A DNA stretch of 64,000 bases from Deinococcales bacterium (GTDB lineage Bacteria; Deinococcota; Deinococci; Deinococcales; JAAFIG01), in assembly GCA_043778225.1 (NCBI GenBank), contig JAYWGM010000089.1, positions 1 to 64,000 of the forward strand, read 5' to 3'. Position numbers and translations under genes: made by a program. Below, piece by piece: positions 908 to 36,279 of this stretch. Each line of letters starts with the position of its first letter. Within the stretch, counting starts at the first letter, position 1. A model generated the notes under the pieces. That model was not told the DNA's origin, did not search any database, and was given only the letters and a program-made list of their open reading frames with translations.

Positions 908-951
908 ACTGGCATTACACAGTTTTTTCTCATTTATGTCACAATAGAGCC

Positions 952-2673: not shown

Positions 2674-2675
2674 CT

Positions 2676-3230
2676 TTAGAGCTTTCCAAAAGAGACAATC
2701 CAGTATTTTTTATTGTTTTCTGGAATCGTGACAATGGCTGCCCCATAACGATTAAAATCTGTGTCCATAAAGACTTGGCAGTGTCCGACAGTGCTACCAA
2801 TCCAAGCTGTAATCACTGGATTGGGGTCGGTAAATTCAAATGCCATAATCTCACCAAGACTTGTACCCGAGAATCCAGCAGCACGCACTCGAGAAATAAC
2901 TGTGCCATCGCCAGCCCCATCGTGTGGGTCTGATGGCATTGCAGTTTTATGATTCTTTGCCATGTAGTCGGCATGGTTGTGAGCAGCTTTTTGCAATTGT
3001 ACATCAATGATTAAATTTGGCGATGGAGTCGTAAAACTCTTGGCTGGAAACGAAGCACCTGAAGCAGCACAGTTGATAGGTGTACCTCCAGAAGCGCTTT
3101 GTCTTTTTGTATTAATCGCATCGTAAAACGAATTGGCAACTTCGTTGTTGATTGTTGGTACATATGGCGGCGTTGGGCAAGCAACCAAAACAAAAGCTAA
3201 CGCCAAACCAAGCCAAATAAACTTTTTCAT
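2676..3230 (-). CDS. CAP (SCP/PR-1) domain lipoprotein
   Basis: Lipobox LVAC; LQKAAHNHADYMA, GEIMA, W..S..GHC motifs. Confidence 0.85.
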   Translation of the reverse strand: MKKFIWLGLALAFVLVACPTPPYVPTINNEVANSFYDAINTKRQSASGGTPINCAASGASFPAKSFTTPSPNLIIDVQLQKAAHNHADYMAKNHKTAMPSDPHDGAGDGTVISRVRAAGFSGTSLGEIMAFEFTDPNPVITAWIGSTVGHCQVFMDTDFNRYGAAIVTIPENNKKYWIVSFGKL

Positions 3231-3347
3231 GGCAACAGTCTACGGCAAAAACCATATTTTGGTCTCGAGCCAAGCATTGACCGCGTTTCAGACAAGACCA
3301 ATTGCATTGTTGAAACTTCTGGCTTCCAAGTCGCGTAAACTACTGCC

Positions 3348-5144
3348 ATGAAAGCCTCGAGTCTGACCTTTGCCATTATTGGCGCGATTGCCTGTGTGAT
3401 TGGCGCAATTTTGTTTGAAATTCTCTTTCCAGCCCGCGCTAACCTTGCCTCCGAAAACACACGGGTGGCTGTGGCACTGCTAATCGACACCAGTGGCAGC
3501 ATGGAACAAGAGGGCAAACTCGAGGAAGTCAAGCGGGCGGCAGCCGACTATGTGGCGCGACAAACCAGCAATACGACCCTCGAGGGCATGAGCATCAATC
3601 GTTTCTCGAGCGATGCCCAAACGGTTTCTTTGTACAGCCAAGATTTCAATTCGCACCAAAGTGTTATTTCTCGCTTTGTGGCAAGCGGTGCAACCGAAAT
3701 GGCTTCGGGTCTCGAGACGGCTGCCCAGTCTTTGGGGGCGGCAGAGCTAGGCACAACCCGACTGATTCTGCTTTTTACCGATGGTCAGCCGGGTTCAAAT
3801 ATCGAACCCGCCGATGTTGCCAAGCCGCGCACACTGGCGACCGCCAACAGTTTACGCGCCTCTGGCTACCGAATTATTGCCGTCGGTACGCTCGATGCCG
3901 ATATTGATTTTTTAGGGCAGATAACTGGCGACCCAAGTCTGGTTTTTCCAACCAGTGCTGGTAATTTTGCAGCCGCGTTTTCCAAAGCCGATGCCAAAAT
4001 CCGCAATTTGTTCTCGAGCGGCACAGGTGGCAACCGTGGATTTGCCGATGCTTTAATTCTGGGTGCTTTGGTGACGCTTTTTTTAGGCACAGCCTTGTTA
4101 GTTGCCGAAAATACGCTTGGCTTACGGGGGCGTTGGTGGCGCGATGTACTTTGGGTGATTCCAGCCAGTGCCTTACTTGGGGTTGGTGGAGCGCTACTCG
4201 GGCAAGCCCTGTTTGCAATTTTTGGTGATGGCGCTCGGGTGGTTGGCTGGGCAGTGGTTGGCACAATTGCTGGGGCAGTCTTGGGTTTAGCCGACCGTTC
4301 TTCTGCCAAAGCGCTGCGTGGGGCAATCGGTGGCACAGTTGGCGGGGTGGTTGGTGGGCTGGTGTTTAGTCTTTTGGGCAGTGCTTTCTCGAGTGGGATT
4401 TTAGAATTGCTCGGGCGCTTATTGGGTTTTGCGGTGCTTGGCTTTGCGGTCGGCTTAATGCTGCAATTGGTCCAACAAGCCTTAAAAACCGCTTGGCTGA
4501 CGGGCATCACCACAGGAGCTTATGAGGGCAAGCAATATATTTTAGGTAAGCCAATCGTGACCATTGGGCGCTCGGATGGCAACGACATTGGCTTGTACCG
4601 CGAGAAAAACTTGGCGCTCAAACTTGGCACATTTAACTTTAATGCTGGGCGCTGGCTGTACAACGGCGAAGCTGTGCTGGTCAATGGCAACAGCCTCTCG
4701 AGTGCAGCACTGGTCAACGGCGACACGATCAAATTTGGGGCAACCGAATTTTTATTTGAAACCAAAGACGGCGGCAACGCACCACGAGAAGAAGTCACAA
4801 TGCCTCCTGTCCCCGAAGCAACCCCAGAAGCTCGAGTTGTGCCGCCAGAGGCTCAGATTGCGCCAAAATCTTGGAAATTGCGTGGTGCTGAAACCTTTGA
4901 GTTGCCCTTTGGCACAGTCAGACTTGGGCGCAGCGAAGACAACCAATTGGTGATTACTGCCCAGAGCATCAGTGGGTATCATGCGCTGCTCGAGGTTGGG
5001 GCTGAAAATTTGAGCATCACCGATTTAGGCAGCACCAATGGCACATTTGTCAACGACCGACGATTGACCACAAACCAAACCGCAAGCCTCCAAGAAGGAA
5101 CAAGTTTAACGCTTGGTGCGGTGCAATTCCGTATCTCGAGATGA
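3348..5144 (+). CDS. Membrane protein with vWA domain, Gly-rich TM region and two FHA domains
   Basis: MIDAS DTSGS and LFTDG; IGRS..NDI; LGRSEDN..ISGYHA..DLGSTNGTFVN. Confidence 0.85.
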   Translation: MKASSLTFAIIGAIACVIGAILFEILFPARANLASENTRVAVALLIDTSGSMEQEGKLEEVKRAAADYVARQTSNTTLEGMSINRFSSDAQTVSLYSQDFNSHQSVISRFVASGATEMASGLETAAQSLGAAELGTTRLILLFTDGQPGSNIEPADVAKPRTLATANSLRASGYRIIAVGTLDADIDFLGQITGDPSLVFPTSAGNFAAAFSKADAKIRNLFSSGTGGNRGFADALILGALVTLFLGTALLVAENTLGLRGRWWRDVLWVIPASALLGVGGALLGQALFAIFGDGARVVGWAVVGTIAGAVLGLADRSSAKALRGAIGGTVGGVVGGLVFSLLGSAFSSGILELLGRLLGFAVLGFAVGLMLQLVQQALKTAWLTGITTGAYEGKQYILGKPIVTIGRSDGNDIGLYREKNLALKLGTFNFNAGRWLYNGEAVLVNGNSLSSAALVNGDTIKFGATEFLFETKDGGNAPREEVTMPPVPEATPEARVVPPEAQIAPKSWKLRGAETFELPFGTVRLGRSEDNQLVITAQSISGYHALLEVGAENLSITDLGSTNGTFVNDRRLTTNQTASLQEGTSLTLGAVQFRISR

Positions 5145-6349
5145 CCAAACACGTGCGCCTTAAACCGATGAGCCAAAAGGTACAGACTTACGAAACTGCC
5201 CTTGAGTGGTTATTTGCTCGCACTCGAGCCGGAGATATTCGCTCTGGGCTTCGCACCTTGGGCTTGCTCGAGCAATGGAGACATCCGCAGAATGCTTTTG
5301 AAAGCATTCATGTGGTTGGCACAAATGGCAAAGGCAGCACCTGTGCAATGTTAGCGGCTGGGCTGGGGGCAACTGGCTTACGGGTTGGGCGTTTTACGTC
5401 GCCGCACCTCGAGGATTACCGTGAACGAATTGTGATTGGCGAACAAATGATTTCCAAAGAAGCGGTTCTCGAGTTTCTACAATGGGCGCAAGCCAACACC
5501 ACCGATGCGGCTTTTTTTGATTTAACCTTGGTGCTGGGACTCGAATATTTTCGGCAGCAAAAAGTAGATATAGCCGTAGTCGAAGCTGGGGTTGGCGCTC
5601 GCCACGATGCCACCTCGAGTATTAAAAATGTCAAAGCCACGATTATTACCAACATTGACCTTGACCACGAAACCACGATTGGCATTGGCGATTACCCAAG
5701 TATGCTCGAGAACATCGCATGGGAAAAAGCTGGCGCGATTCGGGCAGGTGTGCCAGTCCTGACGGCAGCCAAAGGTGCAGCTTTAGAAGTAATCCGCAGC
5801 GTGGCGCTCCAAGAAGCCGCACCGCTTTATATTCTCGAGCCAAACAATCCACTTTTTGTTCTGCCACACGCCCCACTGTTGCAAGGCGCACATCAACTCG
5901 AGAACGCCGCACTGGCACTGGCAACTCTACGGCTTTTGGGTTATCCAGAACACACCCTAGAAGCTGCCCTGAGCGCCACTTGGGCTGGACGGCTCGAGAC
6001 CATCTTGCACCACGATTGCACTTTTATACTGGATGGAGCGCATAACCCGGCTGGCGCTCGAGCCTTGGCGCAGAGTTTAGCTGGTCAGCAATTTTCCTTG
6101 ATTTTTGCCGCCATGAGCCGTAAGCGGGTTAGCGAAATCCTCGAGCCACTCCTCGGTTTAGCCAGCCAACTGCATTTTGTCTCGGTCAGCCCACAAGGGG
6201 TAAACCCGCTCGAGTTGGCACGCATTTATGGTGGAACAGCGCACTCCAGCCTCGAGGCAGCGATAGAGGCAGTCAGACCTTCCAAAAAAGTCTTGGTGGC
6301 TGGTTCGCTGTACTTGGTTGGGGCGGCTCGGCACTGTCTAAGACAATAA
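5141..6349 (+). CDS. folC: Folylpolyglutamate/dihydrofolate synthase
   Basis: HVVGTNGKGS, FTSPHL, EAGVGAR.DAT, LDGAHNP, GSLYLVG. Confidence 0.95.
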   Translation: MTKHVRLKPMSQKVQTYETALEWLFARTRAGDIRSGLRTLGLLEQWRHPQNAFESIHVVGTNGKGSTCAMLAAGLGATGLRVGRFTSPHLEDYRERIVIGEQMISKEAVLEFLQWAQANTTDAAFFDLTLVLGLEYFRQQKVDIAVVEAGVGARHDATSSIKNVKATIITNIDLDHETTIGIGDYPSMLENIAWEKAGAIRAGVPVLTAAKGAALEVIRSVALQEAAPLYILEPNNPLFVLPHAPLLQGAHQLENAALALATLRLLGYPEHTLEAALSATWAGRLETILHHDCTFILDGAHNPAGARALAQSLAGQQFSLIFAAMSRKRVSEILEPLLGLASQLHFVSVSPQGVNPLELARIYGGTAHSSLEAAIEAVRPSKKVLVAGSLYLVGAARHCLRQ

Positions 6350-7487: not shown

Positions 7488-9872
7488 ATGAAAATCACAG
7501 CTGCTCGAGTGCTGACGAGTCTGCTCGCACTTGGTCTGGTTGGTGTTGCTGCAACACAACTGAACAGTTTGGCGCAGGACAATCCTAAAGTTTTGCCGCG
7601 CTCAAGTAAATCTTCGACTCTGGCGATTACCACCGATGATGCAAGGGTCGTGATGGTCAATTCAGAAGATGATTCTGTGTCGGTCTTTGACATGGATACA
7701 AATCGTCGTATCACCACGCTTAAAACGGGTGATGAACCAAGCAGTGTTGTCATTTCCCCCGATGACAACACTTTTTTTGTGGCTAACCGCGCCGATGCAA
7801 CCGTGACTCGAGTCTCGGGCTTAAAAACTGGCGCGTTTGTGGTCTCTGGGACAGTCCAAGTTGGCTCTGAGCCAACCGGTTTGGCGCTTTCACCGACGGG
7901 GGCAAAATTATTTGTGGCTGAATTTGCCCAGTCTCGAGTCTCGGTTTGGGAAACCAAAACCATGACCCGAATCGGCACTTTAGCAGTCAAAAATCCGCGT
8001 GGTTTAGCAGTTTCAAACAATGGAAACTCGGACGATAGCGATGAGACCGTGGTGATTCCAGAGTTTTACGGTAAACCTGTACCTGACGGCGAAGGGACAG
8101 ACACCAGCCGATTGGGCAATGTACGACTTTTTAATGTCGGCACGCTGCGCCAAGAACTGGGTATTGGACTCGAGGCTCTGGATTCTGGTTTTGTTCCAGA
8201 CGGCACAAACAGAGGCACAGTCAAAACCAGCCCAAACCAACTTTGGGGCGCAACAATCCAAAACGGCAAAATTTTTATACCCAGCATCAGCGCTTCGCCG
8301 GCTGCCCCAGCCAGATTTAATGGCAATGTTTATCCGGTGCTATATGTGGCTGACTTGGGCAAAAAAGCCGAAGACAAAGGCATAAACGGCACAACCAATT
8401 TGGCTAAAAAAGTTGCCGACACAATTGCGGCTGGGCAACCTCGGCACTTTTTAGCCGACATCGTAGACCTTGGCTTTGTGGGCGAAAGCAACATTGGCTA
8501 TGTGCTTTCGCGGGGCGCAGATGTGGTGCAAAGAATCGTTCTCGAGCCAACCGGTATGGTCTTGGGCAGCACTTTTAACAAACAGATAGACCTTGGCAAA
8601 GTGCCACAAGGCAACAAAGCCTGCCAAACCCCAACAGGAATTGTGATTGCCCACGAAGGACCACGCGCCTATGTCAATTGCTGGGTCAGCCGTAACCTTG
8701 GGGTTGTGGATTTGTCTACCCAAAGCGTCAATGCCACCTTAGACTCGAGCAGCGCCCCGACGGGCGAAGAAGCAGCCGTCAACAAAGGGCGGCGTTTTTA
8801 CTTTACGGGGCGCGGACGTTGGAGCAAAGAATCGTGGTCAAGCTGTGGCTCGTGTCATCCAGATGGCTTATCGGATAACATCACTTGGATTTTTGGTGCT
8901 GGACCACGCCAAACCACTGCCATGGATGGCAGTTACAGCCACGGGTCTGGACCACAAAAGCAACGGGTTTTTAATTGGACTGGTATTTTTGACGAAGTTC
9001 ACGACTTTGAACGCAATACCCGCGATGTCTCGGGCGGTTTTGGAGCAGTCACGACGGGCGGCTGCGGCGACCTCAACGAAGAAACCAGAACCGAACTGGC
9101 TGGGGGTCTGGATAAACCTGTGCGCGAATCGCAGAACGGCACGGCTGGCAACTGCACCAAAGATTGGGATGAAATCGAGGCTTTTAGTAAAACTGTTCGC
9201 CCCGCCAAAGCCTTGCGTGACCTTGACCCCGAAAGTGTGGCTCGAGGGGCGCAATTGTTTGGCGCACCAACCAACCGCGTCAATGCAGGTAACTGCACGG
9301 CTTGTCATGGTGGAGCGGGTTGGACAGTCTCGAGGGTCTTTTTTGAGCCAAGCACCGCCACCAATGCTGCCCTTAATACACAAGATTTTAAGTTGCCACC
9401 AAATGTGCCATCCACTTGGAATTTTAACAGCAAGCAAATCAGCACCCAAGCACCCGTGACCGACACCACCACAGGCGCACCAGAAGCGGCGGCTGTCGCT
9501 CCAAAACAAATCACCTGTGTGCTGAGAAACATCGGTACTTTTGGGCTTCCGGGAGATATAGCCAAAACCGATGCACTCGAGAAAAAACCAGATGGTACTC
9601 GCGCCCAAGGACGAGGCGGCTTTAATGTGCCAAGTCTGTATGGCATGAGCCTAGGTGCGCCGTATTTGCACCACGGACAAGCCCAGACGCTCGAGGAATT
9701 GTTCACCGACCCACGTTGGAGTAATCACCTCAAGGCAGCCAATCCAGTCTTTTTAAGTTCGGGCAATCCGTCAAGAGACCGCACCGACTTAATCAACTTT
9801 ATTCTCTCGATAGATGCCAATACCCCCGAACAGGTTGTGCCAACTGGCTTTGACCTTTGTCCTAATAAATAG
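7488..9872 (+). CDS. Secreted YVTN/YncE beta-propeller fused to di-heme cytochrome c peroxidase/MauG-like domain
   Basis: RBS AAGGAG; signal peptide; repeated SVSVFD/VGSEP blades; CGSCH, CTACH, FNVPSL, APYLHHG. Confidence 0.85.
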   Translation: MKITAARVLTSLLALGLVGVAATQLNSLAQDNPKVLPRSSKSSTLAITTDDARVVMVNSEDDSVSVFDMDTNRRITTLKTGDEPSSVVISPDDNTFFVANRADATVTRVSGLKTGAFVVSGTVQVGSEPTGLALSPTGAKLFVAEFAQSRVSVWETKTMTRIGTLAVKNPRGLAVSNNGNSDDSDETVVIPEFYGKPVPDGEGTDTSRLGNVRLFNVGTLRQELGIGLEALDSGFVPDGTNRGTVKTSPNQLWGATIQNGKIFIPSISASPAAPARFNGNVYPVLYVADLGKKAEDKGINGTTNLAKKVADTIAAGQPRHFLADIVDLGFVGESNIGYVLSRGADVVQRIVLEPTGMVLGSTFNKQIDLGKVPQGNKACQTPTGIVIAHEGPRAYVNCWVSRNLGVVDLSTQSVNATLDSSSAPTGEEAAVNKGRRFYFTGRGRWSKESWSSCGSCHPDGLSDNITWIFGAGPRQTTAMDGSYSHGSGPQKQRVFNWTGIFDEVHDFERNTRDVSGGFGAVTTGGCGDLNEETRTELAGGLDKPVRESQNGTAGNCTKDWDEIEAFSKTVRPAKALRDLDPESVARGAQLFGAPTNRVNAGNCTACHGGAGWTVSRVFFEPSTATNAALNTQDFKLPPNVPSTWNFNSKQISTQAPVTDTTTGAPEAAAVAPKQITCVLRNIGTFGLPGDIAKTDALEKKPDGTRAQGRGGFNVPSLYGMSLGAPYLHHGQAQTLEELFTDPRWSNHLKAANPVFLSSGNPSRDRTDLINFILSIDANTPEQVVPTGFDLCPNK

Positions 9873-10008: not shown

Positions 10009-11607
10009 ATGAAGAAAGTAGCAATGGCTCTGACTTTGCTTGGCACGGGGGCGTTAATCGCTGCCGTGGCACAAAGTAATAAACCGATTGTGGTCGGTTC
10101 GGGTGGTCAACCCGTTTCATTGGCATCGGGTAAAATCTCGGATGGCAATAGCATTTTTGTGCAGCAACAAATTTATGATCGTTTGCTCGACTTTAAGCCC
10201 GGTACAAGCGAAGTCATGCCAGCTTTGGCACTTTCGGCTCGTCCAAATGCCAATGCCACCAGTTGGTTATTCACCTTGCGTGGCGGCGTGCGTTTTCATG
10301 ACAACACCGTCTTTGATGCCAAAGCCGTTAAAGCCAATTTTGATTTCTGGTGGGACGACACCCGCGCTGATTTCTTCAAAAGCGGTAACAGCATTGTTCC
10401 AGACATCTTTGAGGCTTATAAAAGCGGTAAGAGCCTGATTAAGAGCGTTGAAGTGGTCAATAATTTGCAAGTGCGAATCAACATGAACTCGCCATTTGCC
10501 AACCTCGATGAGGTTTTTGCGACGGGTTACTTTGGTATTGCCAGCCCAGCCGCGATTGCTAAAGTCGGCGAAGATAAGTACGGCTCTGCCAACACCTTGG
10601 CAGTCGGCACAGGTCCGTTTGTGGTTAAAAGCTGGCAAACCGGCGACCGCATTTTGCTCGAGTCCAACAAAAGTTACTGGAAGAAAGGTTTTCCTAAAGC
10701 ACCCGGTATGATTGTGCGTTTCCTTGCCAATGCAGCCGCGCAAGTGGCTGAACTTAGGGCTGGTAACATTGACATGATTCCAACCGGCGCACTGCCTTAC
10801 GACACCTTGCCAGCGATTAAAGCCGACCCAAGTGTCCAAGCTGTTTTCCGTCCGGGCTTTAATGTCGGTTACTTGGCTTTGAATCAGGTTGCCGAATTTG
10901 GCGGCGCAAAAAACCCACTTTCAAACCAAAAAGTTCGTTTGGCAGTCGCCAGTGCGATTGATAAGAAATCCTTAGTTCAGAGTTTCTATGGTGAATACGG
11001 CGTGACCAATGCCTACTTGCCACCGCTCACGATGAACTGGAGCTACCCAAAGAACCAAAAAGATTATGTCTTTAACCCAGAAGCTGCCAAGAAACTGCTG
11101 GCAGAGGCTGGCTACCCAAATGGCTTTAGCATGGAACTCTGGTATATGCCCGTCAGCCGTCCATACTTCCCAAATGCTAAACCTTTGGCAGAAACAATGG
11201 CAAAGGACTTGGCGGCGGTTGGTATTAAAGTTGAACTCAAATCTAAGGATTGGGGCGCGTACCTAGACGATGTTGACGCAGGTAAGTACCAAGCCTATAT
11301 GCTTGGCTGGACTGGCGATTATGCTGACCCAGATAACTTCTACACCCCACTGATTGGACCTGGCACAACCAAAGAAACGGGTTACAACAATCCTAAGCTC
11401 TTCGCTTTGTTGGATGAAGCCCGTAAAGCCCCGAGCAAAGCCAGAAAAGGCGAACTCTATGGTCAAGTTGCCGAAATCCTGTTTGATGACATCGTAAAAA
11501 TGCCAATCGTTCACAGCCGCCCATTATTGGCTCGTCGAACTGTACTCGAGGGTTGGATTCCCGGACCACTGGGCAGCGAACCTTTGATTGATGTTTTTGT
11601 AAAATAA
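10009..11607 (+). CDS. dppA: Peptide ABC transporter substrate-binding protein (family 5)
   Basis: RBS GGAGG; IYDRLL, FTLRGGVRFHD, GTGPF, VSRPYFP, GWTGDYADPDNF. Confidence 0.9.
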   Translation: MKKVAMALTLLGTGALIAAVAQSNKPIVVGSGGQPVSLASGKISDGNSIFVQQQIYDRLLDFKPGTSEVMPALALSARPNANATSWLFTLRGGVRFHDNTVFDAKAVKANFDFWWDDTRADFFKSGNSIVPDIFEAYKSGKSLIKSVEVVNNLQVRINMNSPFANLDEVFATGYFGIASPAAIAKVGEDKYGSANTLAVGTGPFVVKSWQTGDRILLESNKSYWKKGFPKAPGMIVRFLANAAAQVAELRAGNIDMIPTGALPYDTLPAIKADPSVQAVFRPGFNVGYLALNQVAEFGGAKNPLSNQKVRLAVASAIDKKSLVQSFYGEYGVTNAYLPPLTMNWSYPKNQKDYVFNPEAAKKLLAEAGYPNGFSMELWYMPVSRPYFPNAKPLAETMAKDLAAVGIKVELKSKDWGAYLDDVDAGKYQAYMLGWTGDYADPDNFYTPLIGPGTTKETGYNNPKLFALLDEARKAPSKARKGELYGQVAEILFDDIVKMPIVHSRPLLARRTVLEGWIPGPLGSEPLIDVFVK

Positions 11608-20113: not shown

Positions 20114-20617
20114 ATGCCCACCACAATTCACTTCACCACACCGCTCGGCGCAAACATCAGTGTTGAACTCGAGCCTCATGAAACCGCACTGAGCGCACTG
20201 CGAAAACACGGCGCAAGCGGCTGGACAAGCGGCGATGTCGTCAAAAATGGCGGACTGCGCTTGCCACTCGAGAATGCTGAACGCTTTGATTGGCGCTTAA
20301 TTGGCGCAAGGGCTGCCGAACTTCGCAATAACACCACCCAAACTTTAGAGGCTGGTGTTTGGTACAAAGGCGATTTTTATAAACGCCGCGAACTCGAGGC
20401 GCTCGAGACCAAAAAAATGAAATTGGCGGCAGCGATTAAATACTCGCGTGGCGCACGCGACAGCGACCCGCCCGAAATCAAAGAAAAAAGTGGCGAGTTC
20501 GAGTATGTGACCCTAATTTTATTTCGTGGGGCTGGGCATTTACCAGATTACGATGTGCCGCACGAAACAATCGCTCGAATTGATCGAACCAGCCGCCAAA
20601 CGGCGCAGGTGAGTTGA
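20114..20617 (+). CDS. ddrB: Single-stranded DNA annealing protein DdrB
   Basis: GWTSG, FDWRLIGAR, YKRRELEA, KMKL.AAIKYSRGA, GEFEYVTL..FRG match Deinococcus DdrB as I recall it. Confidence 0.9.
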   Translation: MPTTIHFTTPLGANISVELEPHETALSALRKHGASGWTSGDVVKNGGLRLPLENAERFDWRLIGARAAELRNNTTQTLEAGVWYKGDFYKRRELEALETKKMKLAAAIKYSRGARDSDPPEIKEKSGEFEYVTLILFRGAGHLPDYDVPHETIARIDRTSRQTAQVS

Positions 20618-22855: not shown

Positions 22856-23689
22856 ATGACTCCGTATAAAGACTTCACAAAACGTTTTGCATTGTTGATT
22901 GCAAAACATCCTGATTTAATAATCACAACCCTAAGCAACATTTTTACGATGCGTTTAATTGGCAATAAAACGCATGGCGATTTAGCAGAAATTGCAATTG
23001 CTGAATTTATCAATCAATATATGTATGATTTTCGGTCAATTCATATTGGCAAAGACTTGTACCGAGCCAAAGAGCGCGAAGAAGATATTCAAGTCATCAA
23101 CGAAATCACCAAAGTTGAATTTCCGATTAGTCTAAAAGCCTATGGTGATGGACCTTTACAGCTTTCTACCGATAAACACTTTGCAATGTTTCCAAAATTA
23201 CAGCAACTTGGCAGGTTGATTGAAGGTAAAACACTTGAGAAATTATGGGATGATACTGCTTTTTTAAGTTTTGGTACGCTCAACATTTTACCGCTTATTT
23301 ACAATGAAAAAGCTCAGAGATGCAATATTCTTGTTTTCGAGGATGAAAAGGCAAAAGAGGCTATTCAAAGAATTATACTTGAGGATTCAGGTAAAGGGCG
23401 TACCCATCCTGTGTATCGTTTTTATGATGCCAACAATAATTATGTTTGTGAAGTTCGTTATGGGAGTGGGACAGCCAATGCTTTGCAACGTGGACTATGG
23501 ACAAATACAAAAAATGGATTACCCTATTTTGAGAGTATTACTGATGGCTGGATAACCTACGCCCATAATACTGTTCTTGTAAAGTTATTTTCCCATGCTT
23601 TACTGGCAACTCAAGAAGGTCACGAGACTGCACTCGAGTCACTAAAACAAAATATTGAATTGCAAAAACAAAAATCGGTATTGCAATGA
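22856..23689 (+). CDS. Putative type II restriction endonuclease
   Basis: AT-rich ORF coupled (ATGA) to a DNA MTase; E..EEDI..ISLK resembles a PD-(D/E)xK core. Confidence 0.6.
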   Translation: MTPYKDFTKRFALLIAKHPDLIITTLSNIFTMRLIGNKTHGDLAEIAIAEFINQYMYDFRSIHIGKDLYRAKEREEDIQVINEITKVEFPISLKAYGDGPLQLSTDKHFAMFPKLQQLGRLIEGKTLEKLWDDTAFLSFGTLNILPLIYNEKAQRCNILVFEDEKAKEAIQRIILEDSGKGRTHPVYRFYDANNNYVCEVRYGSGTANALQRGLWTNTKNGLPYFESITDGWITYAHNTVLVKLFSHALLATQEGHETALESLKQNIELQKQKSVLQ

Positions 23690-24828
23690 TTGCCGACACT
23701 ACAATGCCTTTGTTTGATGAGGTTGTGCTTTCTGCACCTGAGACAGAAGGTATTAAGTATGCTGGGTCTAAACAAAAATTATTACCTTATATTTTGTCGC
23801 TTGCCAAAAAAGTGAAACCAAAAGTGGTACTTGATGGTTTTGCCGGTTCAACAAGGGTTTCACAAGCCTTTGCAAAAACAGGGCATACCGTGATTGCCAA
23901 TGATATTTCTGTTTGGTCGGAAACATTCTTACAGTGCTATTTGCTGAATGACCTGAGTAAAGCACACTATCAGCCTTTGATTGAACACTTGAATAACTTA
24001 CCACCTGTTCATGGTTGGTTTTCCGAACACTATGGGGGTGACTCGAGTACCCATAATTCTGTCAGCGCTGATGGACTTAAAAAACCTTGGCAGTTACATA
24101 ATACGCGGCGCTTAGATGCGATCAGAAACGAAATTGAGTGCTTAAACCTTTTGCAAGTTGAACGTGCTGTGCTGCTGACTAGCTTGATTCATGCGCTTGA
24201 CGAAGTAGACAGTACACTTGGGCATTTTGCTTCATACTTAAACGATTGGTCACCGCGTTCGTTTAAGCCCTTAGAACTTCGAGTGCCAAATTTACTCGAG
24301 AAACAAGCCACGCATCAGGTACACCGCAAAAATATTTTTGAACTTCTGCCAAAGGTTGAAGTTGATTTGGCATATTTTGACCCCCCGTATGGTTCTAATA
24401 ACGAAAAAATGCCACCATCTCGAGTGCGTTACTCGGCGTATTATCATCTTTGGACAACCATTTGTTTACATGACCAGCCACAAACTTTTGGTAAAGCCAA
24501 ACGCAGGGTGGATACGTCCGACACCATAAGCGCTTCGGTTTTTGAAGAATTTCGCCGCAATGACCAAGGCAAACTGATTGCAGTAGATGCCATTAGCCGC
24601 GCAATCGCAGAAGTTCAAGCCAAACATATTTTACTTTCGTACAGTTCGGGTGGTCGTGCCACAAGCGACGAACTACACGAAGTGATTGCTAGGACAGGGC
24701 GTTTACTTGAAGTCATGCAGATAGACCATAAGCGCAACGTCATGGCGGGTATGCGATGGACAAACCAATGGGTTCGTGATGCCCAAAGCTCAAATCTCGA
24801 GTTTCTATTTTTAGTCGAGAAAACCTAA
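23686..24828 (+). CDS. DNA adenine methyltransferase (alpha/D12 class)
   Basis: YAGSK, DGFAGS (motif I), YFDPPY (motif IV), LLSYS in alpha order. Confidence 0.9.
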   Translation: MIADTTMPLFDEVVLSAPETEGIKYAGSKQKLLPYILSLAKKVKPKVVLDGFAGSTRVSQAFAKTGHTVIANDISVWSETFLQCYLLNDLSKAHYQPLIEHLNNLPPVHGWFSEHYGGDSSTHNSVSADGLKKPWQLHNTRRLDAIRNEIECLNLLQVERAVLLTSLIHALDEVDSTLGHFASYLNDWSPRSFKPLELRVPNLLEKQATHQVHRKNIFELLPKVEVDLAYFDPPYGSNNEKMPPSRVRYSAYYHLWTTICLHDQPQTFGKAKRRVDTSDTISASVFEEFRRNDQGKLIAVDAISRAIAEVQAKHILLSYSSGGRATSDELHEVIARTGRLLEVMQIDHKRNVMAGMRWTNQWVRDAQSSNLEFLFLVEKT

Positions 24829-26058: not shown

Positions 26059-26148
26059 CTTACTTGAGACTTGGTGCAAATGATGCAAATGGGTTTGCCC
26101 GAGAAACACGGGGCTGGACGTGCCACCAAGTACACGCGAAAACCCTAG
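26059..26148 (+). pseudogene. Remnant of a C-terminal winged-HTH
   Basis: Reads LT*DLVQMMQMGLPEKHGAGRATKYTRKP*, resembling the T-R-D-L...G.GR.T.Y tail of Fic/AlbA-RecG-type proteins. Confidence 0.5.
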
Positions 26149-28767: not shown

Positions 28768-28818
28768 TTTTGCATTAGAATACCCTTATGGTACATCCTT
28801 TGGCTGGTCTTCCCACGC
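28768..28818 (+). repeat. Degenerate duplicate of the pgm promoter and first 10 codons
   Basis: 46/51 identical to 34631-34681. Confidence 0.92.
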
Positions 28819-28827
28819 TACTATTTA

Positions 28828-28859
28828 AGAAACATGGGGCTGGACGCGCCACAAAGTAC
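28828..28859 (+). repeat. Second copy of the wHTH-tail fragment
   Basis: 29/32 identical to 26102-26133; encodes KHGAGRATKY. Confidence 0.85.
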
Positions 28860-28918
28860 CTACAGGAATAAATTACCAGAGTTTAAGCAGCGAAGAATGA
28901 GTCTGCTATACTTTTTAT

Positions 28919-29332
28919 ATGGCTCGAGATAAGTACCATTACGCAGCACGAATTGCACTTGAAAAAGAAAAGTGGGTTGTGACTAACGACCCACTCGAAC
29001 TCAGTTTTAAGCAAGCAGATTTTGAAATTGACCTTGCCGCCGAACGTCTAATTGCTGCCGAACGTGGACTCGAGAAAATAGCGGTGGAGATTAAAAGTTT
29101 TCTGAGTAAATCTGCAATTAGTGAGTTTCACACAGCACTTGGTCAGTATCTGAACTATCATGAGGCACTTCAAAACTTGCAACCAGACCGAAAACTCTTT
29201 TTGGCAGTGCCATCGGATGCGTACAACACGTTTTTTCAGTTGCCATTTACACAAGATAGTCTAAAAAAGTATCAGATTCCATTAATTGTGTACAACCCGA
29301 AAACCGAGGTGATTGAATTATGGAAACCCTAA
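28919..29332 (+). CDS. xisH: XisH-family protein
   Basis: ARDKYH, DLAAERLIAAE, KIAVEIKSF, FHTALGQYLNY, RKLFLAVP. Confidence 0.92.
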   Translation: MARDKYHYAARIALEKEKWVVTNDPLELSFKQADFEIDLAAERLIAAERGLEKIAVEIKSFLSKSAISEFHTALGQYLNYHEALQNLQPDRKLFLAVPSDAYNTFFQLPFTQDSLKKYQIPLIVYNPKTEVIELWKP

Positions 29333-29670
29333 CACCGATGCAAAAAGCAGTTCATGCGGCACTCGAGAAGTTTAAGCGCCCGTTCCTGAGCTTACCCGGT
29401 ACTACCAGACACATTATCATGGACGATGCCGCAGGGCATTATCAAGTTCTAAACATTGGTTGGCACGAATTCAACCGAACATTTGATGTTGTGGTGCATA
29501 TCAGTATTCAAAATAATTTAATTTGGATTCAAGTAGATAACACCGAACCGGGTATTACCGACGCACTACTCGAGCAAGGAATAATACCAGAACAAATTGT
29601 GTTGGCGTTCCATGCGCCGTTCAAGCGTCAATTTACGGGTTTTGCAACTGGAAATGAAGTCTCCGCGTAG
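29320..29670 (+). CDS. xisI: XisI-family protein
   Basis: HYQVLNIGW, HISI..IWIQ.DNTE.GI, GI..EQIVLAFH.P. Confidence 0.92.
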   Translation: METLTPMQKAVHAALEKFKRPFLSLPGTTRHIIMDDAAGHYQVLNIGWHEFNRTFDVVVHISIQNNLIWIQVDNTEPGITDALLEQGIIPEQIVLAFHAPFKRQFTGFATGNEVSA

Positions 29671-29738
29671 ATTGGAAGCTAACTTGGTCGAGAAATTAGT
29701 GTCCACTCAAAAAAGGAGTTGTGTATGACTTAAAAAAC

Positions 29739-31343
29739 CTATGCTTGAAAGCATTCTTGTGATAAAATTTCATTTGCTAAAGTAGCAAATTCAAAATTGC
29801 TTTTTCCGGCTTTTACAAAGGCGGCTTCACCACTTTCAACGATTTTAACAAAAACCTTTCTTTGATCATTCGACCACGCTACAGGCTCACGTCCCTTACC
29901 TGCCAACAGCATTGTGTTACCTGCTCGAGTATCCGCCCAGCCAATGACTTGTTGGGTACGTTCATCAATAACAGTTGTTCCACTCGTGGCGGCAAAAGTA
30001 CGATGTAAGGCTCGAGTTTCAAACATTTTTTCAGTAACTGGTGATGGTAAAAAATCTTCAAACTGGTTCATGAGTAAAAAATTACTTATTAAAGCAAGTC
30101 GTATTACATCTTCGGCAGCAGATTCTGGGATTTGATAGGCTTGCATTAGAAATCCGAGTAAGCCATTTTTGGTGGAACTGCTTATTTGCATGAGATACGA
30201 TGCCACTTGTTGCAAGCAGCCTGTGAGCGATGGGCGTGGATCATAGTCTGTGTGAATTTGTTTATTTTTGACCTGTTGTAACAATGGCATGAATTCCGAA
30301 ATACTATCGAATAATCCACTAACTAAGACAACACGGCGGATTCCACCACGTCGCCCTGCTCGCCCTGCACGTTGTACCAAAGAACTTGCATCTAGTGGAG
30401 TATCGAAAAGGATACAAGTGTCTACGTCACCAATATCAATACCAACCTCAAGCGTTTTAGTTGCCACAACCAAAACAATGCGGCGAGTTCTGAGGTGTTC
30501 TTCCGTTTGTTTTCGGTGCGTAGAAGAAGTTGACCCATGATGCACAAAGACACAATCTCGTAAATGTCCTTGATTTAACCAAAGTGTGACTTGTTCGGCA
30601 CGTTTTCTCGAGAGAACAAAGCCAAGGGCTTTTTTGATTCCAGTGTCTTTTAGGAATTGCAAAAAGCCAGTTGCTCCAATAATTTCTTCGCCAGCCCAAT
30701 GATGAGTTAAAAATTCAATTTGGCTTTGTTCTTCGATACTTACTAAAACACTGTTTTTTCGCAATAAACCTGTTTTGGTAACAATGTCAGGCTGGGGCAA
30801 AGTCGCCGAGATTCCCAAACGCCTGTGCTGAGAATTGAGCATAGAAATTCGGTGTAGTAAACCCACCAATTGTGTACCTCGAGGATTATTTAAGAATGTA
30901 TGAATCTCGTCAATGATAATATCTTGCACATTTTGAAGGTCACTTGGTCTTCGTACCAAGGTGCTATCTAAACCTTCTGGAGTACGAATCAGAGCATCGC
31001 TTGGTCTTATTTTGCTTTGCGTATTTTTATCACCAGTAGCAACATCTAAACGCAGTCCTAATTGTTCAAAAATTGGTGACATTCGCTTGTGTAAATCAGT
31101 TGCCAAAGCTCGAGTTGGACTGATTATCAATGCTCCTAATTGATTTTGTTGTTCTCGAGGGCGCAGTAATAAACGCTGGGCAACTGGAACAAAGACCGCT
31201 TCTGTTTTACCCATACCAGTCGGCGCAGTAACCAATCCATCTCGCTCTAACTCGAGCAAAGCAAAAGCCTGTTCTTGCAGTGGGCGTAATTTACCGCCAA
31301 AACGCGAAAAGAAAGCCCGTTTAACCACTTGACTAATTATCAT
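29739..31343 (-). CDS. SF2 DEAD/DEAH helicase, Lhr/BrxHI/SngC-like
   Basis: LRPLQ, APTGMGKT, SPTRAL, TPEG, DEIH, RGTQL, SAT, HHGS, LEVGIDIG, QRAGRAGR. Confidence 0.9.
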   Translation of the reverse strand: MIISQVVKRAFFSRFGGKLRPLQEQAFALLELERDGLVTAPTGMGKTEAVFVPVAQRLLLRPREQQNQLGALIISPTRALATDLHKRMSPIFEQLGLRLDVATGDKNTQSKIRPSDALIRTPEGLDSTLVRRPSDLQNVQDIIIDEIHTFLNNPRGTQLVGLLHRISMLNSQHRRLGISATLPQPDIVTKTGLLRKNSVLVSIEEQSQIEFLTHHWAGEEIIGATGFLQFLKDTGIKKALGFVLSRKRAEQVTLWLNQGHLRDCVFVHHGSTSSTHRKQTEEHLRTRRIVLVVATKTLEVGIDIGDVDTCILFDTPLDASSLVQRAGRAGRRGGIRRVVLVSGLFDSISEFMPLLQQVKNKQIHTDYDPRPSLTGCLQQVASYLMQISSSTKNGLLGFLMQAYQIPESAAEDVIRLALISNFLLMNQFEDFLPSPVTEKMFETRALHRTFAATSGTTVIDERTQQVIGWADTRAGNTMLLAGKGREPVAWSNDQRKVFVKIVESGEAAFVKAGKSNFEFATLANEILSQECFQA

Positions 31344-32413
31344 GAAGGCTCACCTAGCCTCAGATGGTCTAATGCGGCGACAATAGTACGGGTAAATAAA
31401 CGTATATCTTCGTTATCTGTATTTTCCAGAACATTGTCAAGTAATTTTTTTCTGAGTTGTCCTTTTTTTTGATTATAAGCAATTTGATAAATTAGTCCGA
31501 TTTGTTCTGCAATTGCAATTCGGTTCGAGCGGTCAATGATTTTTAGTTGAATTACTGGGATGTTAAGCCTATTACTCAGCACTTGTGCTAATCCAAATTT
31601 GTGGGTGAAAGCAAAAATTGTATGCAAAAAAGAGGAGGTTTGAAGGTCTGAGTTATACTCATCTCGATAAGTTTTTAAGGCTTTGGTACTTTTGTTTGCT
31701 GAACGAGTAGCAAACCAAGTCATTAGGTTTTGTGCCTGAGTGGCACGATGTAGTGTATACGCCCATTCACTTCGCTCTGCTTCGTCGAATAGAATAACAA
31801 AGCCTTTGACTTTAACCTCGCTTTTGAGTTGCATCGCAAACTCAACGAGTTTTCCGACTACACGATTTGCGGCTGTCATTGCAGCAGGTATTTGACTTGA
31901 CAGGTTTTGATTTTCAACAAGTTCTGTCAAGTTGCCAAACCGTTCTAAAAAATGTTCACGAAGTTCCTTCATACCATCCAGAACACTTCTTGAAGGCATA
32001 AATTCTCTTGTATTCATTGCACGCTGCAACAAAAACATACCTTCAGCACCAGCGATAAATTCTGTCGCGATTTTGACCTGAAATGAATGCTCAATAGCTT
32101 TCAAAACTGCATCAGGGTTTTCAGCGCGTTCGTTTGACGACCCCAATTCAAGTGCTGCAACAGCATAACCTTGCTCGAGCAGGTGCTGAGTCAAAATCTC
32201 GAGCAAATGCGACTTACCAACACCATACCCACCTACCAGAATTTGACTCGAGCCATTTTCGTTTTGCTGAATATGATTTTTTAGGACATCGAGTTCATTG
32301 TCACGTCCATAAGATGCCATTAAATCCGTGACAGCTGGCGAGACAATGCCACAACGCAGTGCTTCAAGAGCAGCTCGAGCTTTGAACATGGTGGCACGAT
32401 ATTGTGGCTTCAT
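31340..32413 (-). CDS. P-loop ATPase, BrxD/DUF2791-like (second copy)
   Basis: ARAALEALRCGIV, GGYGVGKSH, VILFDEAE. Confidence 0.8.
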   Translation of the reverse strand: MKPQYRATMFKARAALEALRCGIVSPAVTDLMASYGRDNELDVLKNHIQQNENGSSQILVGGYGVGKSHLLEILTQHLLEQGYAVAALELGSSNERAENPDAVLKAIEHSFQVKIATEFIAGAEGMFLLQRAMNTREFMPSRSVLDGMKELREHFLERFGNLTELVENQNLSSQIPAAMTAANRVVGKLVEFAMQLKSEVKVKGFVILFDEAERSEWAYTLHRATQAQNLMTWFATRSANKSTKALKTYRDEYNSDLQTSSFLHTIFAFTHKFGLAQVLSNRLNIPVIQLKIIDRSNRIAIAEQIGLIYQIAYNQKKGQLRKKLLDNVLENTDNEDIRLFTRTIVAALDHLRLGEPS

Positions 32414-32423
32414 AAGGATTTTA

Positions 32424-33653
32424 CTATCTGGGAGTATTGCTGACAATGGCTTCAATATCCGCACTGGTCGGGTGTTTACCACTTTTTAACTCAAATAAAA
32501 CACTAATAAAAGCCTGAAAAAATAAACGTCTAAAGTACACATCATCTGCTTGCTTAATCACTTCTTTACTGGTCAAATCAGCAAATCGCTGCCGACTTGT
32601 GTCATCTATGCTCGTGCGGTAGGCAATTTGAAAAAGCTCCACCAATTTAAGGCTGACCTCTTGGCAAAGCTGCATTTTGGCTTCGGTGCTTTGATTGCGT
32701 TCGTCCAATACAATTCTTGTGGCTAACGGGTTACTCGGAAACCCAACTGATTGTACACGCTGAATTAAGGCGTGTACTCCACCAAAAATTTCTAGGAAAC
32801 TCGTCCAACTTGGGATTGAATACAAAAACAGTACGCCACCCCAACCACCAGTAGTTTCGTTAATCAGTTGCACTAAATTATTTGAGGCGACAGTTCTTTC
32901 GCTATTACGCGATAGAGAAAGCGAGCGATCACCTTCGTCCATAATAAAAACTAGACCTGGCAAACCCATTTGTCGCAACCACAAAGCAATCGAACGGATT
33001 GCCAATGCACCTGTTTTTTTATCAATTGGCTCAAGCGTGGTTTTGCGTCGCAAATTTGGGCTAGATTTACCTGCCCGTAAATAAATTAGGCATTCGTCAA
33101 GTGTGTTTCGGTCATCAGATACAATCGCCATGGCTGCCTTATGCAAAACAATGCGGATACTGGGTAAAGGTAAATCGCGGATGTTCCGCATTTTTGTATC
33201 AGCATAGGTTGCAGGGTCAGTTTCGGTATCTTCGGGTGGTGGTAAAACCAAACGCCGTAAGACTTGTTCAATTCCTTCGGCTCGAGGCTGGGATTCGGTG
33301 GCTGGTAAGGCTAATTTTTCAATTACTTTTTGATAAATAAGTTCAAAATTCGTTAAGGGACATGAGTCTTTGTGCAATTCAATAAAAGCACTGGCAAAAC
33401 CATGTTGATGCGCTAAACGCTCTACAGAGCGCAAATAATGTGTCTTTCCGCCTCCGTAATAGGCTTCAACGATTTTGAATGCACCTTGTTCACTATTTGG
33501 CAATAAACCATTTTCGGCACTAAAGTATTCTTCCCGAAATATCTCGAGGTCAGCTTCAAGACCAATGCTGATAAACTCTATAATTTCACCGCTTGGTGGA
33601 ATAGCATTCTGCAAAGCGTGTAAGGCTTGTTGCGCTTGAGATCGTGAAATCAT
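32424..33653 (-). CDS. P-loop ATPase, BrxD/DUF2791-like (first copy)
   Basis: ALHALQNAIPP, AYYGGGKTH, GFASAFIEL..CPL, GLVFIMDEGD. Confidence 0.85.
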   Translation of the reverse strand: MISRSQAQQALHALQNAIPPSGEIIEFISIGLEADLEIFREEYFSAENGLLPNSEQGAFKIVEAYYGGGKTHYLRSVERLAHQHGFASAFIELHKDSCPLTNFELIYQKVIEKLALPATESQPRAEGIEQVLRRLVLPPPEDTETDPATYADTKMRNIRDLPLPSIRIVLHKAAMAIVSDDRNTLDECLIYLRAGKSSPNLRRKTTLEPIDKKTGALAIRSIALWLRQMGLPGLVFIMDEGDRSLSLSRNSERTVASNNLVQLINETTGGWGGVLFLYSIPSWTSFLEIFGGVHALIQRVQSVGFPSNPLATRIVLDERNQSTEAKMQLCQEVSLKLVELFQIAYRTSIDDTSRQRFADLTSKEVIKQADDVYFRRLFFQAFISVLFELKSGKHPTSADIEAIVSNTPR

Positions 33654-34453
33654 TTCTTCACCGCCAAGGCAATGCCAGAAATTGGTGTGGGCTGCGGGTG
33701 CTTACGAGGCTCGAGAAAACTAGGTAGCGATAAATACAGATGTGGTTCTTTGGTGCTGTGTTGGGTTGCTCCTGTAAAAGAAATGTCTAAATCGTTACCT
33801 TGCTTGAAGGCTTTTAAGAGATAAGCCATTTGCGCTCGAGTTATCACAGTTCTTGTGACATCATCGGTTGAAGTTAAGTGTGCTTTTAGTAATTTATCGC
33901 TGGTCATCAGCAACATTAAAATGTTTGGACTCACAAATTGAAAATGGGTTGCTCGATGTAAAAGCTGATAACTGCTTTCAAAAATTTTGGCAAGGGCTTT
34001 GGCTTTAGTTAAAATTGCTTCAATTCCCATAATAATCTCGAGTGCCGTTATTGCTAAGACTTCGGCATTAACCGTTTCTATGGTTGTAATGACAACATCA
34101 TCAAGTACGCTCACACGCCAAGTATTGGGTTGTTGCTCGAGAAAATTGACGCACCCGAAGTAAGCATTTGGCGGACGAAATTCACATTCGCAATTTTCTT
34201 TTGCAGCAATTTCCCGTAAGGTTTCCCCCATTGTACGGCGGGATGACTGCACAATTTCTTGTCTTTGAAGTTGTGTGGAAACAAAAGCATCGGTCTGTAG
34301 ATTAAGCGATTGAACCAATAGTGTGAGGGCTTCGTCTGTGGCTTTAGGGCTGTGTTGTAAAAATCCTAAGGCTTCCTGAATTTGCTTCGTGGAATCACGG
34401 ATACTGCCTAAAGCACTGCTGTTACCGCTACGCTGTACTTTCTTTTTAGCCAT
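33650..34453 (-). CDS. Hypothetical protein heading the ATPase-ATPase-helicase operon
   Basis: GAGG-N6-ATG at 34453; stop overlaps next start (ATGA); no family recognised. Confidence 0.75.
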   Translation of the reverse strand: MAKKKVQRSGNSSALGSIRDSTKQIQEALGFLQHSPKATDEALTLLVQSLNLQTDAFVSTQLQRQEIVQSSRRTMGETLREIAAKENCECEFRPPNAYFGCVNFLEQQPNTWRVSVLDDVVITTIETVNAEVLAITALEIIMGIEAILTKAKALAKIFESSYQLLHRATHFQFVSPNILMLLMTSDKLLKAHLTSTDDVTRTVITRAQMAYLLKAFKQGNDLDISFTGATQHSTKEPHLYLSLPSFLEPRKHPQPTPISGIALAVKK

Positions 34454-34650
34454 TTTACGCCTCGCTTGAGACAATAGCTTAACACCTAAGACTAAAAAAT
34501 GTCGTCTAGGGTGTCCAAATTGTTTTACCCAGCAGTATCATTCTCTTTCCAAAGGTTAACACTTGACTTGTTTTGGCTCGAGCTAATTTTCTTGAAAACA
34601 GTAGCTCGGAACTTCCAATTCTCGAGTCACTTTTGCATTAGAATACCCTC

Positions 34651-36279
34651 ATGGCTCATCCTCTGGCTGGTCTTCCCGCGCCGTTTGGTCTTCTCGAGAA
34701 TATTCCGCGTTTAATCGCTGCGTATTACAGTTTTGCGCCTGACCCAAGCAACCCTGCCCAACGCGTGGCGTTTGGCACGAGTGGTCATCGAGGCTCGAGT
34801 TTGCGTGGTACGTTCAATGATGCCCATATCGCGGCAATCGCTCAGGCGACTGCCGAGTACCGTGCCGAAGCTGGTATTACAGGCGATTTATTCTTGGGTG
34901 TGGATTCGCACGCCCTGTCCGAACCTGCTTTTAATACTGCCCTCGAGGTGCTGGTTGCCAATGGTGTGAAGGTGCGTTTTGATGTGGCTCGAGGCTACAC
35001 GCCAACGCCTTTGGTTTCCTATGCGATTCTTAACGCCAATAAAAACAGTGCTGTACAAGCCGACGGGATTGTGATTACGCCTTCACATAATCCACCCGAA
35101 GATGGCGGTTTTAAGTACAACCCACCAACCGGTGGTCCTGCCGATGGTGTGGTCACCAAATGGATTGAAACTCGTGCCAATGCCTTGCTCGAGGTTGGGC
35201 TTGATGGTGTCAAGCGAATCCCGTTTGCGGCAGCGCTCGAGGCAGCCACAGCCTTTGATTTTATTACGCCTTATGTGCAAAATTTACCAAATGTGGTCAA
35301 TCTCGAGGCAATCAAAAAGGCTGGTGTTAAAATTGGCGTTGACCCGCTTGGTGGCTCGAGTTTACCAGTCTGGCAAAAAATTCTCGAGCTTTATGGTTTG
35401 GATTTAACGATTGTCAATGATCGGATTGATCCAACTTTTGCGTTTATGCGCGTGGACAAGGACGGTAAAATCCGTATGGATTGCAGCAGCCCAAGTGCCA
35501 TGGCGGGTTTAATCGAACTTAAAAACAGTTTTGCCGTTGCCATTGGTAACGACCCCGATGCCGACCGCCACGGAATTGTCACCCCAAGCGGCTTGATGAA
35601 TCCAAATCACTTTTTGGCGGTTTGTATAGACTATTTGTTTACCCATCGCCCAGACTGGAATGCCGACATGGGCGTTGGTAAGACCCTTGTCTCGAGCAGC
35701 CTAATAGACCGTGTGGTGGCTCGACTTGGGCGCAGGCTCGAGGAAGTGCCAGTCGGTTTCAAATACTTTGTGGATGGTCTGGCTTCGGGGCGGATTGGCT
35801 TTGGCGGCGAGGAATCGGCGGGGGCAAGTTTCCAGCGCTTTGATGGCAGCGCTTGGAGTACCGACAAGGACGGGATTATTCTGGGTTTACTGGCAGCCGA
35901 AATCACGGCAGTAACAGGGCAAACCCCAGATGAGTATTACTCGAGGCTCGAGGCAGAATTTGGACGCAGTTTTTATAAACGCATTGATGCCCCAGCCAGC
36001 AGCCAGCAGAAAAAAATCTTATCCAGTTTAAGTCCAGAAATGGTGACTGCCACAAGTTTAGCCGGCGAAGAAATTACCGCCAAACTCACTCGAGCGCCCA
36101 GCAACAACGAACCGATTGGCGGCTTAAAAGTCTGTACAGCTAACGCTTGGTTTACCGCTCGACCAAGCGGCACAGAAGAACTCTATAAAATCTATGCCGA
36201 AAGTTTTATTTCCGAGAGCCATGTAAACGAGGTACTCGAGGAGGCTCAAAAAATCGTCTCGGGTGCTTTTGGTGTTTAG
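34651..36279 (+). CDS. pgm: Phosphoglucomutase
   Basis: [44 protein letters not shown]. Confidence 0.97.

Follow-up and report, generated by a model that had tools for sequence, protein, structure and literature searches.

A four-gene operon and its conservation

The DNA analysed here (the window) is a stretch of 64,000 nucleotides (nt), positions 1 to 64,000 of contig JAYWGM010000089.1 from a Deinococcales bacterium. Between positions 29739 and 34453 its minus strand carries four intact open reading frames (ORFs), which according to the ORF list and its translations all run in the same direction and encode 1,567 amino acids (aa) in total: a protein of a new family (the lead protein), two ATPases and a helicase. 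These four genes, referred to below as the cassette, had been put forward in a preliminary description of the sequence as a new defence system. They are arranged as follows, in the order of transcription and preceded by the non-coding stretch upstream of them:

34454-34630, minus strand: 5' non-coding stretch of the operon, presumed promoter; similar to the cassette of a sister species only up to 34588
33650-34453, minus strand: gene 1, lead protein, 267 aa, new family; N-terminal helices, a five-stranded beta-sheet and a predicted C-terminal winged helix (residues ~150-267)
32424-33653, minus strand: gene 2, ATPase A, 409 aa; putative AAA+ ATPase of the BrxC_BrxD family and the ORC/Cdc6 clade, scoring nearer BrxD than SngB
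31340-32413, minus strand: gene 3, ATPase B, 357 aa; putative, divergent P-loop ATPase of the BrxC_BrxD family, scoring nearer SngB than BrxD
29739-31343, minus strand: gene 4, helicase, 534 aa; predicted superfamily 2 (SF2) enzyme (DEIH) similar to Lhr, BrxHI and SngC, lacking the ~140-aa C-terminal domain of its 670-aa relatives

Direct reading of the sequence located ATGA overlaps between the lead and ATPase A genes (33653-33650) and between the ATPase B and helicase genes (31343-31340), as well as a 10-bp gap separating the two ATPase genes (32423-32414); the preliminary description had placed all of these junctions exactly. It had also called the genes AT-rich, in agreement with an operon guanine-plus-cytosine (GC) content of 0.419 against 0.492 in the rest of the window. 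The lead ORF would span 33650-34474 if opened at a TTG codon; the ATG at 34453 was taken as the true start because the four full-length proteins among the five close homologues compared begin at the aligned methionine, the fifth (P0006) being a 233-aa fragment devoid of the N-terminus. Similarly, the ATPase B ORF opens at a GTG at 32482 (31340-32482) and its likely start is the ATG at 32413. A promoter and terminator scan yielded nothing usefully above shuffled sequences.

The four genes travel together. A scan of public metagenomes with the ATPase A profile recovered eight loci which, with one contig of the sister species, amount to nine related loci, and the order lead, ATPase A, ATPase B, helicase is kept in all of them as far as the contigs extend: ATPase A is immediately preceded by the lead gene in 9 of 9, ATPase B follows in the 7 of 7 loci that reach it and the helicase comes next in 5 of 5. 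The neighbourhood search that the preliminary description had suggested as a check thus returned a conserved four-gene unit. The sizes of the protein families also match, with 42 clusters for the lead protein (at 50% identity), 56 for ATPase A (at 90%) and 29 orthologue clusters for the helicase (at least 39% identity). Two of the loci carry damaged genes. At L009 the ATPase A gene is split by a frame break near 8142-8360, and at L010 the helicase ORF (10328-11281) ends after 318 aa, inside the Helicase_C domain, in the midst of DDE and rve transposases, a resolvase and ParA; the L010 copy probably resides on a mobile element and is in decay.

The encoded proteins

On the evidence of their sequences both ATPases belong to the Pfam BrxC_BrxD P-loop family (PF10923, formerly DUF2791), since they score above its gathering cut-off of 22.2 bits and their Walker motifs are intact. 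ATPase A matches the model over its whole length (9.2e-20, 71.4 bits), and ATPase B through its N-terminal 84 residues only (2.9e-10, 40.1 bits), with an additional match to AAA_16. Among the PADLOC models, ATPase A is recognized by BrxD (9.5e-22) and SngB (1.9e-6), and ATPase B by SngB (5.3e-8 over 82 residues). The Walker A and B motifs, which the preliminary description had already read in both proteins, are invariant in the 47 sequences aligned for ATPase A (GGGKTH and DEGD) and in the 8 aligned for ATPase B (G.YG.GK(S/T)H and DEAER). In a profile-profile comparison the two proteins were paralogous over 319 columns with a probability of 98.5%, so that they appear to be divergent but full-length paralogues, in keeping with the duplicated and divergent ATPase noted earlier. 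The profile of ATPase A retrieved nothing from the PDB sequences at E <= 1, and prediction of a complex between ATPase A and the lead protein scored 0.00 in both runs, which were made without controls and speak neither for nor against such a complex.

The product of the last gene is, by its sequence, an Lhr-like SF2 helicase. It combines a DEAD core (PF00270, 5.6e-31) with a Helicase_C domain (PF00271, 9.3e-19), and motifs I (APTGMGKT), II (DEIH), III (SAT) and VI (QRAGRAGR) can be read in the translation, which bears out the earlier statement that this protein of 534 aa keeps all SF2 motifs. Its short length is a family trait rather than the result of truncation, because most of its orthologues measure ~533 aa; these comprise the 29 clusters mentioned above, below which identity falls sharply to 33%, and it is the relatives of ~670 aa that bear the extra ~140-aa C-terminal domain. 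PADLOC BrxHI matches residues 18-529 of the helicase (3e-65; model positions 24-550 of 698), and SngC residues 18-337 only (5.9e-57; positions 24-366 of a 720-position model). A quick maximum-likelihood tree, which took in 12 of 24 orthologue-length, 15 of 39 short and 25 of 44 long helicases, united the 12 cassette helicases in one group with a Shimodaira-Hasegawa-like approximate likelihood-ratio support (SH-aLRT) of 100, apart from the relatives of 30% identity and from SngC and BrxHI, each of the last two being represented by a single reference on a long branch.

The best solved relatives of the helicase are structures of mycobacterial Lhr (5v9x, 2.4e-28; 7lhl, 2.6e-27), and its best NCBIfam match is a ligase-associated DNA-damage-response DEXH helicase (3e-54). 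Such affinities would suit a cellular module for DNA repair or genome maintenance built on an Lhr-type helicase and devoid of any immune role, as would the long residence of the cassette in its lineage, judged by the density of CTCGAG sites described below. The NCBIfam score, however, reaches 184 bits where the cut-off is 850, profile comparisons place Shango and type 2 BREX (BREX-2), not repair operons, nearest to the cassette, and the lead gene occurs in only 2 of 364 genomes of the phylum, unlike a housekeeping gene. Furthermore, the cassette resides here in a repeat-bounded island and has mobile-element and defence genes as neighbours elsewhere. We regard a repair function as improbable.

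The lead protein, which the preliminary description had left unrecognized, remains without any known family. None of 39 aligned members matches a Pfam or PADLOC model at E <= 0.001, the sub-threshold matches being those of single members (E 0.003-0.09), each to a different model, and the protein itself has no NCBIfam match. A word-indexed search of 5.8 billion clusters returned 6 proteins of this family, and a full HMMER profile search of 1.84 billion representatives returned the 42 clusters counted above, nearly all of 250-283 aa. The alignment used (A3) left out the fragmentary or partial matches P0063, P0077, P0093, P0096, P0100, P0101 and P0103, in addition to P0006. A first structural model built from 6 sequences was unusable, with a predicted local distance difference test (pLDDT) of 46, and was replaced by an AlphaFold2 model from the 39-sequence alignment (pLDDT 90.6, predicted template modelling score 0.85), which has three helices at its N-terminus, a helix-and-wing module at its C-terminus and, besides these, a five-stranded sheet and two long helices. 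The C-terminal region (residues ~150-267), with its three helices and beta-wing, is in the model a winged helix, predicted to resemble most closely those of Cdc6/ORC1; the lead profile displays no sequence similarity to ORC.

Further comparisons of the lead protein were negative. Foldseek with the complete model, residues 1-150 not being searched alone, gave no match at E <= 0.001 in PDB or BFVD, and no TerB or Lhr chain stood among the matches listed. The lead profile found only low-complexity helical matches in the PDB sequences, and the ESM Atlas offered no match by features. Structural matches to zincin-like and tetratricopeptide-repeat proteins were set aside, as they derived from a poor ESM Atlas model (pLDDT 0.36); the lead protein has no HExxH motif. 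The idea that it could be the detached C-terminal domain of the short helicase was likewise rejected at the sequence level, the hhalign probability against the extension of 25 helicases of ~670 aa being 0.7%.

Comparison with Shango and the type 2 BREX pair

Sequence comparisons indicate that the cassette, which has no name, is related both to Shango (SngABC) and to the BREX-2 pair BrxD-BrxHI. Our references were the Shango locus of the Klebsiella variicola plasmid NZ_CP092633.1 (L029) and the BREX-2/Pgl locus of the Polaromonas plasmid NC_008757.1 (L030). Like Shango, the cassette is an operon of overlapping genes in which a lead gene is followed by a BrxC_BrxD-family ATPase and this in turn by an Lhr-like DEAD/DEAH helicase, with neither nuclease nor methylase. 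The profile of ATPase B scores better against SngB (3e-14) than against BrxD (4.6e-9), that of ATPase A also matches SngB (3.3e-15), although more weakly than BrxD, and the helicase shares 32% identity with the core of SngC over 363 aa.

Against this stand several differences from Shango. The lead protein of the cassette has 267 aa against the 769 aa of SngA and lacks TerB: none of the 39 family members matches the TerB Pfam models at E <= 0.1 or the PADLOC model of SngA, and the lead profile compared with the Klebsiella SngA gave an hhalign probability of 0.5% and an hmmsearch E of 0.16, residues 1-150 not being folded or searched alone. Two paralogous ATPases, present in all seven loci that reach so far, take the place of the single SngB, and the helicase, of 534 aa against 731 aa for SngC, is without the C-terminal domain and, in the quick tree, belongs to a clade of its own. 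The absence of a recognizable TerB, stated in the preliminary description, held true. The only TerB gene of the genome lies on another contig (C46; L015, 314-3356), in a tellurite-stress cluster with a StiP protease, a TIM-barrel C-C bond lyase and an AIM24-like protein that is not linked to any ATPase or helicase.

With BREX-2 the cassette has in common the tight linkage of an ORC/Cdc6-type ATPase and an Lhr/Ski2-like helicase. The profile of ATPase A matches BrxD at 1.6e-27 (24% identity over the full length) and the helicase is 30% identical to the Polaromonas BrxHI over 533 aa. Nonetheless, against the NCBIfam BrxD model (NF033438) ATPase A and ATPase B score 77.6 and 25.9 bits, respectively, with a cut-off of 350; the cassette adds a lead protein and a second ATPase, and its helicase does not cover the last ~150 positions of the BrxHI model. 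As for the remaining BREX-2 genes, PglZ, PglX, PglY/BrxC and PglW are all missing from the 19 ORFs that were scanned from 19024 to 43157, and the genome, at 89.4% completeness, gave no match to PglZ (PF08665); the earlier remark that PglX and PglZ are missing from the locus stands. Nor does the cassette look like a piece of a larger BREX locus elsewhere, the flanking ORFs scanned at the homologous loci being free of PglX, PglZ and BrxC.

We keep the cassette apart from both systems because it has neither the TerB lead and single ATPase by which Shango is defined nor the Pgl core genes and above-cut-off BrxD that define BREX-2. It does not constitute a PADLOC v2 system either, that collection having no model for the lead gene, and no paper describing it was found in a literature search that did not cover supplements. 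The preliminary proposal of a new defence system consequently survives in part, in that the cassette is a distinct and conserved unit for which no published description was found; as a relative of Shango and of the BREX-2 dyad, it is not a new kind of system.

Both relatives offer clues to what such genes may do. Shango protects against phages, according to Johnson et al. (10.1101/2022.11.11.516204) and Millman et al. (10.1101/2022.05.11.491447). Rakesh and Krishnan (PMC12839542) place BrxD, which lacks a DNA-binding domain and forms with BrxHI a linked dyad within BREX-2, among the ORC/Cdc6 AAA+ ATPases, and suggest that it may load or activate BrxHI. The likeness of the cassette to the archaeal and eukaryotic ORC/Cdc6 helicase loaders would be one of functional analogy only, as its predicted winged helix sits on a separate protein and its helicase is a monomer-type SF2 enzyme of the Lhr kind, not an MCM.

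Island, neighbours and possible function

The cassette lies within an island (28819-34630) that shares the low GC content of the operon and is the lowest-GC 5.8-kb stretch in the window. The preliminary description had seen it as repeat-bounded, and a 51-nt direct repeat with copies 90% identical was found at both edges. The boundaries and the other genes of the island are:

28768-28818, no strand assigned: left repeat copy; decayed duplicate of the ribosome-binding site, start codon and first 31 nt of pgm; island boundary
34631-34681, no strand assigned: right repeat copy; functional 5' end of pgm (phosphoglucomutase), start codon at 34651
28919-29332, plus strand: XisH-family gene inside the island (PF08814, 1.1e-52; no PADLOC match)
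29320-29670, plus strand: XisI-family gene inside the island (PF08869, 2.7e-30)

The XisH-family gene could be either a passenger or a helper in excision. Two other species of the genus, neither of which has the cassette, carry XisI homologues (37-51% identity) immediately 5' of pgm (L027, 2040-2282; L028, 2169-2501); apart from these homologues, no gene of the window recurs ahead of pgm in four other species of the genus that were compared. The 5' end of pgm may be a recurrent landing site for XisHI-bearing elements. Next to the island, a second direct repeat of 32 nt (26102-26133 and 28828-28859; 91% identical), which begins 10 nt past the left island repeat, encloses genes for an MFS transporter, a flavin reductase and an ArsR-like regulator (GC 0.44-0.48), hinting at a neighbouring segment that was inserted separately.

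The cassette is, by these and other sequence criteria, horizontally mobile, because it is rare in the phylum (its lead gene occurs in one of seven other genomes of the genus), sits in a low-GC repeat-bounded island, has other neighbours in the sister species and has homologues in distant bacteria. In the sister species it is accompanied by a PIN gene and a HerA-like fragment, and nucleotide similarity to the window ends at 34588, 43 nt short of the repeat; the comparison indicates that the cassette moved on its own between the two species. Homologues of about 50% identity come, by their source names, from Competibacteraceae and from a deltaproteobacterial metagenome-assembled genome. A megablast search of 5,426 E. 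coli genomes gave no match, and the lead profile retrieved nothing from the metagenome contig set.

The hexanucleotide palindrome CTCGAG provides a rough measure of residence time. The window contains 363 copies, against 8.2 +/- 2.7 expected (5.67 per kb), a density also seen in four other species of the genus (3.4-7.1 per kb); 50 of 86 sites in nine genes checked fall in codon frame 0 (Leu-Glu), and no paper combining "iterated palindrom" with CTCGAG was found. The island has 3.96 sites per kb whereas the cassette homologues of other lineages have 0-1.3 per kb, and therefore it has probably resided in this lineage for some time. Elsewhere in the window, a type II restriction-modification pair (22856-24828; GC 0.375) consists of a REase_II gene (1.4e-127) and a D12-class N6-adenine methylase (1.9e-155). 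Its REase_II gene holds a single CTCGAG site (1.2 per kb), which suggests that the pair arrived more recently than the cassette. A DdrB-like gene (20114-20617, 8.5e-37) adjoining aroK and dprA is consistent with a Deinococcales host.

The setting of the cassette invites comparison with the replication or maintenance module of a mobile element, in which ORC/Cdc6-like initiator ATPases, a winged-helix origin binder and a helicase would serve the propagation of the element itself. The ORC/Cdc6-clade assignment of the ATPases (PMC12839542), the predicted resemblance of the lead winged helix to those of Cdc6/ORC1, the direct repeats and XisH/XisI genes of the island and the presence of ParA, resolvase and transposases at L010 would all fit this idea. 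Yet the island has no integrase, primase or polymerase, ATPase A has no relative in the IMG/VR viral contigs and no tblastn match on 72,556 plasmids, and the neighbouring genes differ at every locus. Moreover, Lhr-type SF2 helicases are not known to be replicative enzymes. A maintenance module is, in our opinion, a far-fetched explanation.

With moderate confidence, and by analogy with its relatives, we consider action against phages or other invading DNA the most likely role of the cassette. This role is favoured because the ATPase-helicase engine is common to the phage-protective Shango and to the BREX-2 dyad, and it is in line with the defence or mobile-element neighbours found at L009, L013, L010 and L006 (a PIN gene upstream of the cassette at the last of these) and with the restriction-modification pair of the window, 5 kb away. 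It is tempting to speculate on how such a system would operate. The two ATPases would form a hetero-oligomer and the lead protein would supply the DNA-recognising winged helix that BrxD-type ATPases do not have, acting as the specificity or sensor subunit; contact with foreign DNA, or with DNA of abnormal structure, would lead the complex to load or switch on the helicase, which as the output of the system would block replication of the invader. DNA destruction, if any, would be left to host nucleases or neighbouring systems, as the cassette has no nuclease of its own. Beyond the domain assignments, each of these steps is what we infer.

The neighbours also lend themselves to another interpretation, namely that the cassette is an accessory module of an adjacent methylation-based system (Hma/DUF499, DISARM or restriction-modification), loading its helicase on DNA that the partner has marked as foreign. 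At L013 (2-8186) it is inserted between HmaB, a methylase (upstream, 1.5e-223), and HmaC (downstream, 1.8e-185), which joins HEPN_Swt1 to a DUF499 ATPase in the Hma or "BREX-related" system. At L009 a complete DISARM core (247-6328; DrmA 4e-281, DrmB 9.2e-72, DrmC 1e-90) stands immediately upstream of it and is read in the same direction. Given both arrangements, action by the cassette alone, and the methylation independence supposed in the preliminary description, are no more than possible. The restriction-modification pair of the window and the linkage of BrxD and BrxHI as a dyad inside BREX-2 (PMC12839542) would also fit an accessory role. On the other hand, the partner varies from locus to locus (Hma, DISARM or none), as it does in defence islands generally; no methylase occurs within the available flanks of L010, L011, L014 and L006, the nearest methylase in the window is 5 kb off, past unrelated metabolic genes, and the cassette has moved alone between two species of the genus. 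An accessory role, though rather unlikely, is the main rival to direct action against invaders, repair and mobile-element maintenance being less likely.

Within the anti-invader reading, a bolder version, which we hold to be doubtful, is that the cassette works as a split, ORC-like immune helicase loader, in which two paralogous ORC/Cdc6-type ATPases would come together with a separate subunit, bearing the Cdc6-type winged helix, on the DNA of an invader so as to load a helicase of the Lhr type, providing immunity free of nucleases and of methylation. In a wider family of the form "X + BrxD-like ATPase + Lhr-like helicase", the lead protein would then play the part of the exchangeable subunit that confers specificity. 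Shango, whose X would be TerB, and the BREX-2 dyad, with another X, would in that case also belong to this family.

All homologues with a named source, namely the sister-species contig and 3 of 10 clusters examined, come from uncultured bacteria, and this may explain why surveys of isolate genomes have not named the cassette. The mechanism of Shango and of the BREX-2 BrxD-BrxHI pair is not known, and the cassette would add a third natural form of their common ATPase-helicase engine, in which a small, well-folded protein with a predicted winged helix stands in place of a 769-aa TerB protein and the ATPase appears to be split into two specialised paralogues. With its 1,567 aa, it may offer a compact system for asking what these ATPases do to the helicase and what the product of the first gene senses.

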